Sequence record: PQ569716.1
From: Klebsiella phage vB_Kpn_K7_rec17
DNA: 64,000 bases
Direction: 5' to 3' (one strand)
The position numbers were made by a program, and so were the translations under genes. This document shows, one piece after another, positions 40,685 through 43,440 of the stretch. The notes beneath the pieces were generated by a model. That model was not told where the DNA came from. It made no database searches and saw nothing but the letters and a program-made list of their open reading frames with translations. Position 1 is the first letter of the stretch. Every line of letters starts with the position of its first letter.

Positions 40685-40899
40685 TAGTTTGTTAAGGAAT
40701 TAATCTGATACAGAGTCGGCACCAAAAAACACGCTTGCAGAGTAGAAACCCCAAGAGGGGCTTTGCAAGAATAGCGGAGTGACTCTCCGAAACGCCTGGT
40801 AAGCGTAGAGTGTATCGTATTTGTGAAGAGCGGGTATCCTTGCATGGCTAATTGCTCAGGGTATTACGCGCACCGGATTAATTGCCTTAACAAATTATT
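40685..40899 (+). ncRNA. candidate small structured RNA between promoter and tRNA-Ala
   Basis: no ORF; hairpins AAACCCCaagaGGGGCTTT, CGGAGtgaCTCCG; about 215 nt. Confidence 0.3.
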
Positions 40900-40975
40900 G
40901 GGGTCAGGGTCTGCTAGGAGTGGACACCTCGCTTGCACCGAGGATAGCAGCAGAGTTCGAATCTCTGTGACTCCA
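40900..40975 (+). tRNA. tRNA-Ala (anticodon TGC)
   Basis: 76 nt; G3:U70 wobble in acceptor (Ala identity element), D-stem GTCT/GGAC, anticodon stem CCTCG/CGAGG loop CTTGCAC, 7-nt variable loop, T-arm CAGAGTTCGAATCTCTG, CCA; unusual G8 G9. Confidence 0.55.
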
Positions 40976-40997
40976 CCAATTAAAGTTAGGAGTACGT

Positions 40998-41159
40998 ATG
41001 GAAAAGGCAAATGAAAGCGAAAACTTCTTTAGAGAGGAAAATTTTGATGCTGTGGTAGACATGGTATTAGAAAGCTCTAGAGCCTCTTTTGCCCTGGAAG
41101 GTATCTGTATTTCTGACCAAAACTTTGAGAAGATTAAAAGTCTGATCAAAGAAAACTAA
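40998..41159 (+). CDS. small hypothetical acidic protein (53 aa)
   Basis: AGGAG site 7 nt before ATG; not in ORF track (under 60 aa). Confidence 0.4.
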   Translation: MEKANESENFFREENFDAVVDMVLESSRASFALEGICISDQNFEKIKSLIKEN

Positions 41160-41164
41160 TAAAT

Positions 41165-41248
41165 GGGGATGTGGCGAAATTGGCAGCCGCGCTAGATTTA
41201 GGTTCTAGTGGTGAAATATCCGTGTGGGTTCGACCCCCTCCATCCCTA
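41165..41248 (+). tRNA. tRNA-Leu (anticodon TAG), long variable arm
   Basis: 84 nt; acceptor GGGGATG/CATCCCT, anticodon stem CTAGA/TCTAG loop TTTAGGT, 15-nt variable arm, CCA. Confidence 0.6.
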
Positions 41249-41251
41249 CCA

Positions 41252-41362
41252 AATTTGATGTTCAGTGAAACCTACGGCTGGTGGAAACACTGTTTTAACA
41301 GGTTCGAATCCTGGCGGGGCTTAAACAGCCCGGTGTAGTCGAGGCATCATCTTATATTAACT
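41252..41362 (+). other. tRNA-fragment-like segment: T-arm (CAGGTTCGAATCCTG) and hairpins but no matching acceptor stem
   Basis: hand inspection; possible pseudo-tRNA or processing spacer. Confidence 0.3.
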
Positions 41363-41444
41363 GGAGAGTAGTGCTCATGGGAGCAAGCTGACTTGAAATC
41401 AGTCGCCATCGGAAACGGTGAGGGTTCGATTCCTTTATTCTCCG
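41363..41444 (+). tRNA. tRNA-Ser (anticodon TGA), long variable arm
   Basis: acceptor GGAGAGT/ATTCTCC, D-stem TGCT/AGCA, anticodon stem GCTGA/TCAGT loop CTTGAAA, 16-nt variable arm, discriminator G, CCA. Confidence 0.6.
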
Positions 41445-41454
41445 CCAAACAACT

Positions 41455-41537
41455 GGAAAGCTGGTGAAACGGTAGCCACGCATCACTGCTAATGATGAGT
41501 CCGCAAGGGCATGAAGGTTCAAGTCCTTCGCTTTCCG
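41455..41537 (+). tRNA. tRNA-Ser (anticodon GCT), long variable arm
   Basis: acceptor GGAAAGC/GCTTTCC, anticodon stem CATCA/TGATG loop CTGCTAA, T-arm GAAGGTTCAAGTCCTTC, discriminator G, CCA. Confidence 0.65.
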
Positions 41538-41540
41538 CCA

Positions 41541-41795
41541 AATAATGGCCCGACGAGTAACGGTTGCCCCTTTCTAGAGAATTTTCTGGGCGAAAATCCA
41601 GAAGTAATCAACTAGTTGTAAGTGGGAAGAGTTTCTTAGGGCCACCAAATTTGAGCATCATCGTTCGATGAGTCGCCTGTTGGGATAATATGCTGCACAA
41701 AGTGCAACGTACCAATACGCGGTCTAACCGGATAATGTGTGCGATGTGCATTCTATCTGTGGAGGTCTGATCAGCCCTCGATGGTGCTCAAATTT
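41541..41795 (+). ncRNA. two candidate structured RNAs: 41545-41647 (5' GGCCC ... GGGCC-A-CCA 3', tRNA-like acceptor end without T-loop) and 41648-41795 (closed by 11-bp helix GAGCATCATCG/CGATGGTGCTC)
   Basis: No ORFs; long-range complementarity seen by eye; both followed by CCAAATTT like the genuine tRNAs. Confidence 0.35.
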
Positions 41796-41869
41796 GGGAT
41801 ATTATCATAACTGGATAATGACCTCGATTGTGGATCGAGTCTATCTTGGTTCGAATCCAAGATATCCCT
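41796..41869 (+). tRNA. tRNA-His (anticodon GTG)
   Basis: acceptor GGGATAT/ATATCCC, D-stem TCAT/ATGA, anticodon stem CTCGA/TCGAG loop TTGTGGA, T-arm CTTGGTTCGAATCCAAG, CCA. Confidence 0.65.
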
Positions 41870-41879
41870 CCAGATTACT

Positions 41880-41951
41880 GCACCATTAGTTTAATGGATA
41901 GAATATAGAGCTACGAACTCTATGGTTGAGGTTCGATTCCTCGATGGTGTA
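41880..41951 (+). tRNA. tRNA-Arg (anticodon ACG)
   Basis: acceptor GCACCAT/ATGGTGT, anticodon stem TAGAG/CTCTA loop CTACGAA, T-loop TTCGATT, CCA. Confidence 0.6.
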
Positions 41952-41954
41952 CCA

Positions 41955-42083
41955 TAAAATCTCTGCTGAGAGTGACGAGGTTAGCCCTCTGGGTCACATC
42001 CCTCTTCTAGCCGCCTCCCATAAATGCAAGCATTTATGTTCTGGCCCTAGACACAACGTTGTACTCAGCAGAGTGCGCATAAT
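41955..42083 (+). ncRNA. candidate structured RNA closed by 10-bp helix CTCTGCTGAG/CTCAGCAGAG
   Basis: contains perfect hairpin ATAAATGCaaGCATTTAT; no ORF. Confidence 0.35.
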
Positions 42084-42156
42084 TGGGGTATAGCTCAGTA
42101 GGTAGAGCGGAGGTCTCTGAAGCCTTAGGTCACAAGTTCGATTCTTGTTGCCCCTG
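42084..42156 (+). tRNA. tRNA-Gln (anticodon CTG)
   Basis: D-arm TAGCTCAGTAGGTAGAGC, anticodon stem GAGGT/GCCTT (wobbles) loop CTCTGAA, T-arm ACAAGTTCGATTCTTGT, CCA; T1-T72 mismatch. Confidence 0.5.
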
Positions 42157-42161
42157 CCAAT

Positions 42162-42235
42162 TGCACCGTAGAGGAGAGGCCGTCCTCGCCAGTCTCATAA
42201 GCTGGAGATCGCAAGTTCGAATCTTGCCGGAGCAT
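42162..42235 (+). tRNA. tRNA with CAT anticodon, copy 2
   Basis: acceptor TGCACCG/CGGAGCA (one A-A mismatch), D-stem GAGG/CCTC, anticodon stem CCAGT/GCTGG loop CTCATAA, T-arm GCAAGTTCGAATCTTGC, CCA. Confidence 0.5.
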
Positions 42236-42251
42236 CCAATTCTAGGAGAAG

Positions 42252-42446
42252 ATGATGCGAATCACTTTCACAGAACGTGTTTTAGGTAGTGGAGTATTAT
42301 TGATCACCTCCTGGGACGGAGATCAGTGGTGTAATGTGGCGGGCTTACACAAGCCAGAACAAACGCCAGAGAATATTGCAAAAGTCAAGAAACGTATGGC
42401 GGAAGCTGCCAAACGTCCAGGAGCACCACGAAACGGTAAACGTTGA
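42252..42446 (+). CDS. hypothetical protein
   Basis: 64 aa ORF with GGAG site. Confidence 0.45.
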   Translation: MMRITFTERVLGSGVLLITSWDGDQWCNVAGLHKPEQTPENIAKVKKRMAEAAKRPGAPRNGKR

Positions 42447-42453
42447 GGTAACT

Positions 42454-42612
42454 ATGATTCGCTATCAAGGTATGCTAATTAATACCCACACAAAAGAGAT
42501 CGTATTTTGGGCACCGGCTTTTCATGACACGTACAAGGAAGCTGAGGAAGATGCTAGAATAGCTCAAATACACCCGGACGAGGAAATCTGCGTCCGTCAG
42601 CAAGAACAATAA
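42454..42612 (+). CDS. small hypothetical protein (52 aa)
   Basis: ATG 42454 preceded by GAGGT; ORF-track start 42334 overlaps previous gene in another frame. Confidence 0.4.
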   Translation: MIRYQGMLINTHTKEIVFWAPAFHDTYKEAEEDARIAQIHPDEEICVRQQEQ

Positions 42613-42613
42613 T

Positions 42614-42686
42614 GCTTCGATAGCTCAGTTGGTAGAGCAAACGACCGATAATCGTTAGGTCACTGGTTCGAGTCCAGTTCGGAGTA
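42614..42686 (+). tRNA. tRNA-Ile (anticodon GAT)
   Basis: acceptor GCTTCGA/TCGGAGT, D-arm TAGCTCAGTTGGTAGAGC, anticodon stem AACGA/TCGTT loop CCGATAA, T-arm ACTGGTTCGAGTCCAGT, CCA. Confidence 0.7.
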
Positions 42687-42694
42687 CCAAATAA

Positions 42695-42768
42695 GGTCAG
42701 TTGGCAGAGATGGTTTATGCACTCGCTTCATACGTGAGACTACAGTGGTTCGAGTCCACTATTGACCA
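42695..42768 (+). tRNA. tRNA with CAT anticodon, copy 3
   Basis: acceptor GGTCAGT/ATTGACC, anticodon stem CTCGC/GTGAG loop TTCATAC, T-arm AGTGGTTCGAGTCCACT, CCA. Confidence 0.6.
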
Positions 42769-42774
42769 CCAAAT

Positions 42775-42847
42775 ACTTGCTTAGCTCAATCGGGAGAGCA
42801 TCGTCTTTACACGGCGAGGGTAGCTGGTTCGAAACCAGCAGCAAGTA
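42775..42847 (+). tRNA. tRNA-Val (anticodon TAC)
   Basis: acceptor ACTTGCT/AGCAAGT perfect, anticodon stem TCGTC/GGCGA loop TTTACAC, T-arm GCTGGTTCGAAACCAGC, CCA. Confidence 0.65.
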
Positions 42848-42850
42848 CCA

Positions 42851-43440
42851 ATTTACAGTGAGACTTCGGTCAGGGCCATCAAACGTCCGAGAAGCTGTAA
42901 TTTCTGATGGGGATGATCCCAGATTCGTAAGAATACCCCATCCTTACCTTCACAGGTTTTAGCGCAATGCTATGTAAAAGTCTAGGGAATCTGGGATGGG
43001 GCTGAGAGAAATCTCACACAACCATCCTACTCCATGCCGTCCAGGAGTATAAATGGCGAATCTAGGGACTTAGACGGTCATTGCCCTAGCGCGTTGATGC
43101 CGTGCCGGAATCGGTATACGGGGCTTCCTAAAGGGCGTAAGCAGAACATCCACTCTGCATAAGATACCCGAAAACGAGGCTGAGATAAATGGTCTATCTT
43201 GTGAAGGTTCAATCCCTTCCGGGGTTAGCGTGTAGTGGGGCTAATCAATCCCCACGTTAAACGTTCAAGTTAAGATTTGTTAGTTGCAGAAACGGGGAGG
43301 CTATCAACCTTCAGTCCCTGAAAGCTCTCAGCGCTTGGAACTCTTTCGTCCGTAAGGAATAGATCCCCTTTCGCTTTGACTCGCAAACTTCAAACCAAGT
43401 GTAACTAACAGCTGCAAGCCTGGATTACCGCTCTTCGGAG
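42851..43440 (+). ncRNA. 590-bp ORF-free structured segment inside tRNA cluster (candidate stable RNA(s))
   Basis: hairpins GTGGGGctaatcaatCCCCAC, T-arm-like GAAGGTTCAATCCCTTC without acceptor partner, repeated GGGATGGGG / CCCATCC motifs; no ORF with ribosome-binding site. Confidence 0.35.

Follow-up and report, generated by a model that had tools for sequence, protein, structure and literature searches.

Which products are specified by the spaces that separate the transfer RNA (tRNA) genes of a T5-like phage? The question is raised by positions 40685-43440 of a 64,000-nucleotide (nt) stretch of Klebsiella phage vB_Kpn_K7_rec17 (PQ569716.1), the whole of which is called the window here. In an initial annotation, several segments of this locus had been described as structured blocks lacking open reading frames (ORFs) and closed by long-range helices, and they had been put forward as candidate genes for stable RNAs of the kind reported from T5-type phages. 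Our comparative analysis of the sequence supports this view with a probability of about 0.8: the blocks would be genes for structured non-coding RNAs of the T5/BF23 kind, processed from tRNA precursors into products that would be stable.

The tRNA array and the conservation of its gaps

The window phage is a Klebsiella Sugarlandvirus (Demerecviridae), whose region 40630-43500 is 100% identical to that of phage vB_Kpn_K30lambda2.2 (OY978897.1) and has partial matches in 511 phage records. On the + strand, ARAGORN located 25 tRNA genes, spread from 38807 to 48719, and our study was focused on the gaps from tRNA-Glu, which ends at 40629, up to a promoter at 43461. Each block fills the space between its flanking tRNA genes, or that from the promoter to the first tRNA gene. 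In OY978897.1 these gaps carry no RNA annotation, and the sole feature in them is a 38-amino acid (aa) 'hypothetical protein' on the opposite strand. The record of phage BF23 (AJ604530.1), with an RNA annotation that dates from 2004, lists eight misc_RNAs among the tRNA genes (RNAIII, RNAI, RNA1, RNA 2H, RNAIV, RNA2, RNA3, and RNAX), labeled as stable or tRNA-like with 'unknown functions', and promoters are annotated as well. The stable RNAs of T5 were reportedly studied in the 1980s by a group in Pushchino.

The tRNA regions compared were those of T5, BF23, the Epseptimavirus phages Stitch and PRF-SP12, Enterobacter phage KKP_3711, Pectobacterium phage My1, Serratia phage Kamaji, Erwinia phage KEY, other Sugarlandviruses, and sequences from IMG/VR and metagenomes, and each block was aligned separately among them. 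Direct searches from BF23 to the window gave no match for RNA 2H or RNAIII and a marginal one for RNAI, so that profiles built through intermediate phages were required. Pairing counts were controlled by sliding the partners of each helix, and the covariation score by 500 shuffles. The closing helices described inside the tRNA cluster were found in the folds, usually longer than initially given, and across phage genera compensatory changes preserve their pairing. Across families, 93-99.7% of the alignment cells were paired, in comparison with 24-49% when partners were slid, and the covariation score was reached by 0 of 500 shuffles in each of the five families tested (blocks A, C, and D, RNA1, and RNAI).

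Regarding coding capacity, the description of the segments as ORF-free holds for long or conserved ORFs, and not for mechanical ORFs of 30-66 aa, which overlap every block. No ORF of at least 25 aa is kept in position, frame, or strand across the homologs of any block, and the indels of 36-57 nt seen among homologs remove or add a hairpin as a whole, which argues that the blocks are non-coding. Rfam, proposed as a check on the structured segments, yielded no family beyond tRNA: at gathering score only tRNA genes were found in the whole window, and at E ≤ 10 over 40600-43520 nothing but noise appeared inside the blocks, with no match to transfer-messenger RNA (tmRNA), Y-RNA-like, 6S, GOLLD, or ROOL families. 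No tmRNA was found by ARAGORN either.

Homologs of RNA 2H, RNAI, and RNA1

Judged by alignment, fold, covariation, and a hidden Markov model (HMM), block A (40685-40899, + strand) is a homolog of the BF23/T5 RNA 2H and is predicted to form a 215-nt multi-branched RNA. The block is closed by a helix of about 22 bp and extends to the 5′ end of tRNA-Ala (40900), and its folding z is -5.25. Changes on both sides were observed in 21 of its 47 pairs (alignment A8, with the BF23 row included), and 99.1% of the cells were paired, in comparison with 28-41% after sliding. An HMM made from window-type, KKP_3711, and Epseptimavirus sequences, without BF23, matched BF23 at 4042-4245 (E 6.7e-34), where RNA 2H is annotated at 4056-4227, and T5 (locus L003) at 5218-5418 (E 2.2e-35). 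The direct pairwise search of block A against BF23 RNA 2H gave no match; the link runs through intermediate sequences, via which block A aligns with RNA 2H over its full length. In addition, the window and BF23 share the order promoter (P13b in BF23), RNA 2H, and tRNA-Ala. Both annotated ends of BF23 RNA 2H fall within the closing helix and show a 3′ stagger of 2 bp, the cut geometry of RNase III; assuming that these ends are experimental, they point to cutting by that enzyme.

Block B (41547-41647, 101 nt, + strand) is likewise, by alignment A7, fold, covariation, and HMM, a homolog of the BF23/T5 RNAI. The boundaries described for the segment 41545-41647 were recovered: GGCCC at 41547-41551 forms a 5-bp acceptor-like stem with GGGCC, which is followed by a discriminator A and an encoded CCA (41639-41647). 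The 5-bp stem and the discriminator base are present in each of 23 distinct homologs, the terminal CCA being conserved in 22 of them and replaced by TCA in one, and the window sequence follows the family pattern of about 100-107 nt with 5′ GGCYC and 3′ GRGCC, then N-CCA. Seven of the 21 RNAI pairs showed changes on both sides, with 98.5% of the cells paired, and the internal helices covary. An HMM devoid of any T5-type sequence matched BF23 at 3130-3236, exactly the annotated RNAI (E 3.9e-13), and T5 (L003) end to end at 3816-3922 (E 2.5e-13).

On the basis of nhmmer, an alignment of 21 sequences (A6), and ARAGORN, the sequence at 43096-43227 (+ strand) is a homolog of the BF23/T5 RNA1 and would specify a class-II tRNA-like RNA. 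The window matched BF23 RNA1 directly over 43103-43221 (E 6e-17), the BF23 annotation being 'rna1: tRNA-like RNA with unknown functions'. The RNA consists of an acceptor stem, a D-arm, a 5-bp equivalent of the anticodon stem that closes a structured insert of about 41 nt, a long variable arm, and a T-arm. The hairpin loop of the insert, AACAUCCACU, is identical in 20 of the 21 sequences, hardly any variation is seen in the variable and T arms, and 12 of 38 pairs showed changes on both sides, with 99.7% of the cells paired. With introns allowed, ARAGORN read BF23 RNA1 as tRNA-Leu(UAA) with a 40-nt insert, and it also called a tRNA, interrupted by 41 nt, at window positions 43095-43229. A CCA is encoded by all 25 tRNAs of the cluster and not by RNA1; in RNA1, moreover, the insert takes the place of the 7-nt anticodon loop with U33 expected of a functional tRNA, and the residual 'anticodon loop' differs by clade (CUUAAAA, UCAUAAA, or CGAAAAC), which argues that RNA1 is not a working tRNA.

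We also asked whether the insert might be an intron in a functional tRNA-Leu(UAA), and rejected the idea, given the lack of conservation in the residual anticodon loop and the fact that bacteria are not known to have a splicing mechanism for a 40-nt insert. Recent derivation of RNA1 from a tRNA gene of the same phage was rejected too, the best identity being 62%. No complementarity to the RNA1 loop beyond chance level was found in the rest of the window, and the exact RNA1 motif was found in 23 phages of IMG/VR, mostly RefSeq.

The recovery of RNA 2H and RNAI at their annotated coordinates by HMMs free of BF23 and T5, together with the direct match of RNA1, supports the identification of the blocks as RNA genes. 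The proposal of T5-type stable RNA genes stands through the homology of RNA 2H, RNAI, and RNA1, and it does not extend to block D and most of the 590-bp segment 42851-43440, which fall outside the T5/BF23 set.

Structured RNAs without a proven counterpart among the annotated BF23 RNAs

Block C (41648-41795, + strand) corresponds to a predicted 148-nt structured RNA (fold and covariation from alignment A9, covariance model R1). It is closed by a helix, as initially described, although not of 11 bp: the helix has 16 bp in the single-sequence fold and 18 bp in the comparative model, and the folding z is -4.10. The RNAI CCA forms the start of the 18-bp helix, whose other strand reaches the 5′ end of tRNA-His. 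Both-side changes affected 21 of 56 pairs, 94.7% of the cells were paired, and the RNA contains invariant single-stranded motifs, one of which, GGTCTGATCAGCCCTC, is kept with a single variant. The order RNAI, RNAIII-position RNA, tRNA-His is common to the window and BF23, with a terminal closing helix in both. The covariance model (CM) R1 recovered an untrained member in My1 with 68 bits, and it gave a weak 25-bit match at the RNAIII position of the T5-type locus L022, a score similar to those of reverse-strand artefacts. When block C was aligned with RNAIII (AJ604530.1, 3020-3125) using MAFFT, only the ends and one 3′ motif were brought together. We regard block C as the counterpart of RNAIII by position, homology between the two being unproven. 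A search of bacterial genomes with the block C motif gave chance matches only, and no host homolog was found.

Block D (41955-42083, + strand) is an unannotated family of structured RNAs of about 125 nt, located here between tRNA-Arg(ACG) and tRNA-Gln(CUG). Both the 10-bp closing helix (41961-41970/42064-42073) and the internal 8-bp hairpin ATAAATGC/GCATTTAT of the initial description were found, and the folding z is -3.77. Alignment A14 (a further one, A15, was made) contained 30 pairs, 15 of which showed changes on both sides, including 6 of the 10 closing-helix pairs, with 93.1% of the cells paired, and internal single-stranded motifs such as AGAGTGA are invariant. Profile searches found no counterpart in BF23, T5, or Epseptimavirus. 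Block D recurs in inter-tRNA gaps of KKP_3711, My1, Kamaji, and KEY, that is, in Enterobacter, Pectobacterium, Serratia, and Erwinia phages. The Arg(ACG)-Gln(CUG) position is shared by the window, KKP_3711, KEY, and four metagenomic contigs; in My1 the RNA immediately precedes tRNA-Gln, and in Kamaji it occupies the gap between tRNA-His and tRNA-Met. A CM for block D (R2) recovered the untrained KEY member, at the same Arg-D-Gln position, with 51 bits. The D motif gave 103 matches in metagenomes; among 100 loci scanned with the CM, three were real (L049, L120, and L122), a fourth (L143) was added by blastn, and all four belong to Sugarlandvirus-like arrays. The exact D motif in IMG/VR returned known phages and chance matches only.

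A further element, A2 (41252-41362, + strand), lies unannotated between tRNA-Leu(UAG) and tRNA-Ser and was absent from the segments initially listed. Alignment A13 and its fold predict a tRNA-like small RNA with a closing stem GATG/CATC, a T-arm-like hairpin CAGG-TTCGAAT-CCTG, and four compensatory pairs. Homologs are found in BF23 (locus L002, 3761-3885, E about 1e-42), in a gap that carries no annotation, and in Erwinia phage KEY, inside an annotated coding sequence (CDS). The 'hypothetical protein' CDSs key_098 and key_099 of KEY (L007, 7106-7487) and gp60 of Stitch (L009, 6020-6181) overlap homologs of RNA 2H, A2, and RNAI and are probably mis-calls of RNA genes.

The composite segment 42851-43440

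The segment 42851-43440 had been taken as one structured, ORF-free block of 590 bp. It is ORF-free in the sense given above, and it is a string of modules rather than one element. In BLAST searches with the whole segment, only 43103-43219 was conserved outside Sugarlandvirus, being found in 502 records.

The 5′ part, E1a (42851-43028, + strand; alignments A10 and A16), is conserved in Sugarlandvirus only. An optional hairpin of 36-38 nt (about 42992-43027) is carried by some Sugarlandviruses (loci L049, L122, and L143) and cleanly missing from others (L010, L012, and L024), and a compensatory change, GGGATG/CATCC vs AGGGTG/CACCCT, distinguishes the carriers. This clean presence or absence, with the compensatory change between carriers, suggests a modular gain and loss of entire stem-loops.

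E1b (43029-43089, + strand) is predicted from alignment A12 and its pair counts to form a double pseudoknot of about 60 nt with three interleaved helices (43029-33/43044-48, 43036-41/43073-78, and 43062-68/43083-89). Its 18 pairs were kept in 98.4% of the cells, in comparison with 32-40% with slid partners, and five pairs with both-side changes are spread over all three helices. E1b is common to Epseptimavirus phages, where it directly follows the last tRNA-Met.

Downstream of RNA1, E3 (43277-43411, + strand; alignment A11) is a tentative 135-nt module closed by the 9-bp helix TTGTTAGTT/AACTAACAG. One compensatory change was observed in this helix (locus L012 has TTGTTAATT/AATTAACAG), and the folding z is -0.60. 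The E3 hairpin loop CUCGCAAAC also occurs in BF23 RNAIV; an origin of E3 from RNAIV was not accepted, this 12-nt match being the sole link. In the 123-kb contig of L012 (IMGVR_UViG_2974571502, 4400-4817), the RNA1-like module is missing and E3 is shortened by an internal deletion of 57 nt, with the flanks kept, which is a further sign that the RNAs are gained and lost independently.

Transcription unit and proposed maturation

All the blocks lie on the tRNA strand in one unit between strong early promoters at 40649 and 43461. A promoter scan identified a sigma-70 early promoter, TTGCTA-17-TATAAT with a TG extension, at 40649-40677 (+ strand), which is predicted to drive the unit. Its expected transcription start, about 40684-40685, is the first base of the block A closing helix, and its aligned counterpart in BF23 is P13b, upstream of RNA 2H. 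The next sigma-70 early promoter, also TTGCTA-17-TATAAT and TG-extended, at 43461-43489 (+ strand), marks the end of the unit that holds all the blocks. Shortly before it, at 43422-43447 (+ strand), sequence and fold reveal a GC-rich hairpin with a UUCG loop (core CCGCTC-TTCG-GAGCGG) and without a proper U-tract, invariant in alignment A11. The terminator scan did not flag it, and it is probably a hairpin that protects the 3′ end or terminates transcription.

A copy of the promoter block (AAAAAYTCAGTTGCTAAAYGCT...TATAAT) stands at either end of the unit (40640-40710 and 43452-43500). The block is 84% identical to the T5 early promoter/'repeat b' copies, including the copy before the DNA ligase gene, and also matches Vibrio and Proteus T5-like phages.

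The block C helix runs from the CCA of RNAI to the 5′ end of tRNA-His, and block D occupies inter-tRNA gaps in several genera; both facts argue for processing linked to that of the tRNAs. In the mechanism that we propose, the unit would be transcribed as a polycistronic precursor, from which the RNAs would be released by the host enzymes that mature tRNAs. RNase P, by cutting at the 5′ end of each downstream tRNA, would set the 3′ ends of the upstream RNAs, and would also cut at G1 of the acceptor-like stem of RNAI, whose 3′ trimming would halt at the encoded CCA. RNase III would probably cut within the closing helices of 18-22 bp, and the closed ends would shield the RNAs from exonucleases and thereby confer stability.

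Two further regions of the window resemble BF23 RNAs. Directly after tRNA-Leu(UAA), positions 47171-47274 match BF23 RNA2 (nhmmer E 1.1e-11), and in BF23 RNA2 ARAGORN detected a tRNA whose anticodon arm is enlarged by a 48-nt insert; this homology and the insert suggest a second tRNA mimic of the RNA1 type. Upstream of the tRNA cluster, a stretch of about 1.3 kb (36987-38299) has no + strand ORF longer than 71 aa, and pieces of it match the 784-nt RNAX of BF23 (37017-37250, 37408-37554 with E 2.5e-27, and 38153-38284). The region may be a larger, interrupted version of RNAX.

Alternative explanations and possible function

Several observations weigh against our interpretation. The 590-bp segment as a whole folds no better than its shuffles (z = -1.01), and neither do its sub-blocks; E1a (z = +0.28) is without structural support, and outside the optional hairpin it varies too little for a covariation test. 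The cell counts given above come from alignments of 5-23 sequences from few clades, in which kinship inflates them. For block C, the likeness to a T5-type stable RNA holds for the RNAIII position and the closing-helix architecture and not for sequence, since its HMM found nothing in BF23 or T5 at E ≤ 1. As to function, T5 mutants deleted for 29191-32442 are viable (PMC11464382). This deletion covers the T5 RNAI, RNA1, and RNA 2H loci, as mapped from L003, which shows that T5 can grow on laboratory E. coli in their absence.

Regarding that function, it is possible, at a tentative level, that the RNAs are accessory and trans-acting, with RNA1, A2, and RNAI as tRNA mimics that engage tRNA-binding factors of host or phage and are dispensable in laboratory hosts. 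Just as tentative is the idea that the blocks are structured spacers acting in cis, whose self-folding would prevent mispairing of the tRNAs and position the processing sites, the released pieces being functionless by-products. In favor of spacers, every block adjoins tRNA genes, the closing helix brings the ends of the neighboring tRNAs close to each other, modules come and go freely among related phages, and the T5 deletions are viable. For such spacers, however, a helix alone would suffice, yet the RNA1 loop AACAUCCACU, the block C motif GGTCTGATCAGCCCTC (but for its single variant), and AGAGTGA of block D are invariant across genera. This invariance of loops and single-stranded motifs in RNA1, C, and D argues for a role beyond that of a spacer. 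Furthermore, RNAI retains its acceptor-like stem and CCA, and the annotators of BF23 list the RNAs as stable species. Altogether, we favor trans-acting tRNA mimics over pure spacers only slightly.

A more specific role for the mimics is speculative, and we regard it as unlikely. The tRNA arrays of Demerecviridae would carry at least seven independently mobile families of structured RNAs, with block D, E1b, A2, and E3 as previously undescribed ones, and RNA1 and RNA2, with their expanded anticodon arms, and RNAI, with its bare acceptor-CCA end, would be uncleavable decoys or inhibitors of tRNA-targeting defense nucleases or of other tRNA-binding enzymes. Phage T5 tRNAs have known roles against PARIS and the retron Eco7 (PMC11464382, PMC10644984), and decoys would complement them. 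Phage tRNA clusters counter host defenses that cut tRNAs, and the non-tRNA RNAs embedded in them have been ignored so far; if true, the decoy proposal would give a function to RNAs that have been without one for forty years.

It is improbable that the blocks are decaying tRNA pseudogenes or relics of recombination, devoid of present function, in a fast-evolving tRNA array. RNA1, RNA2, and A2 are recognizably derived from tRNAs, and the region is mosaic and contains homing endonuclease genes in T5 and BF23. Against decay, the helices are kept by compensatory changes, identities of 75-93% are maintained from Tequintavirus to Sugarlandvirus while the flanks diverge, and blocks A, C, and D have no tRNA features.

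The possibility that the 590-bp segment is one large structured RNA of the GOLLD or ROOL type is more remote still. A length of about 590 nt, the lack of ORFs, and the location beside phage tRNA genes would suit such an RNA, and BF23 is annotated with an RNA as long as RNAX. On the other side stand the lack of any Rfam match and the z-score of the whole segment, and its modules occur apart from one another: RNA1 lies beside RNAI in T5, in Epseptimavirus E1b comes after tRNA-Met, and L012 lacks RNA1 together with part of E3. The least plausible alternative, that the blocks encode small proteins partly found by gene callers, would account for CDSs annotated over the homologs (CAK6597998.1 at window positions 43270-43386 on the minus strand, others in K7_rec phages, Stitch gp60, and KEY key_098/099), and we dismiss it in view of the lack of conserved ORFs, the compensatory nature of helix variation, and the disagreement of the annotated calls between near-identical genomes.

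Our preferred interpretation as non-coding RNA genes also has consequences for annotation. These RNAs are conserved, structurally constrained, and modular across genera, and they are missing from Rfam and from nearly all Demerecviridae annotations, in which they are often mis-called as small proteins; the alignments and structures presented here correct that annotation. The families also offer targets for deletion and pull-down experiments on the old question of the role of the stable RNAs of T5 and T4.

Comparison with known systems

The closest known system is that of the T5/BF23 stable RNAs, from which the kind of feature described here was already known, so that the result in the window is mostly a confirmation. 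What is new are the Sugarlandvirus members, the comparative structures for each family, and the unannotated families D, A2, E1b, and possibly E3. The two systems share the phage family, the place in the tRNA array, the tRNA strand, the closing-helix architecture, the sequence homology of RNA 2H, RNAI, and RNA1, and the gene order around tRNA-Ala and tRNA-His. They differ in that block C has 148 nt, in comparison with the 106 nt of RNAIII, and shows no detectable sequence homology to it, and in that block D, E1b, and E3 have no annotated counterpart in T5/BF23. In addition, RNA1 of the window follows tRNA-Val rather than immediately preceding RNAI, the acceptor stems of the two RNA1 versions differ, and the Sugarlandvirus copies are unannotated in the records examined.

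Phage T4 provides a second comparison, with RNAC and RNAD (species 1 and 2 RNAs), small stable RNAs at the end of its tRNA cluster whose roles are still unknown (PMC3014915, PMC9697503). RNAD ends in GCGCACCA, as RNAI does, and RNAC has the T-arm CCGGGTTCGAATCCCGG, as RNA1 and A2 do. T4 belongs to another phage family (Straboviridae), and with no sequence or CM similarity (the block C model R1 gave only noise in the T4 rnaC/rnaD region) the resemblance is by analogy only.

More distant is the likeness to tmRNA and to YrlA-type Y RNAs, in which an acceptor-like stem, a T-arm, or both are placed in a larger non-tRNA scaffold, and where RNase P-type processing is plausible. RNA1 differs from them in keeping a full cloverleaf with an open acceptor stem, in which only the anticodon arm is expanded; to our knowledge, neither the tmRNA nor the Y RNA class is built in this way.

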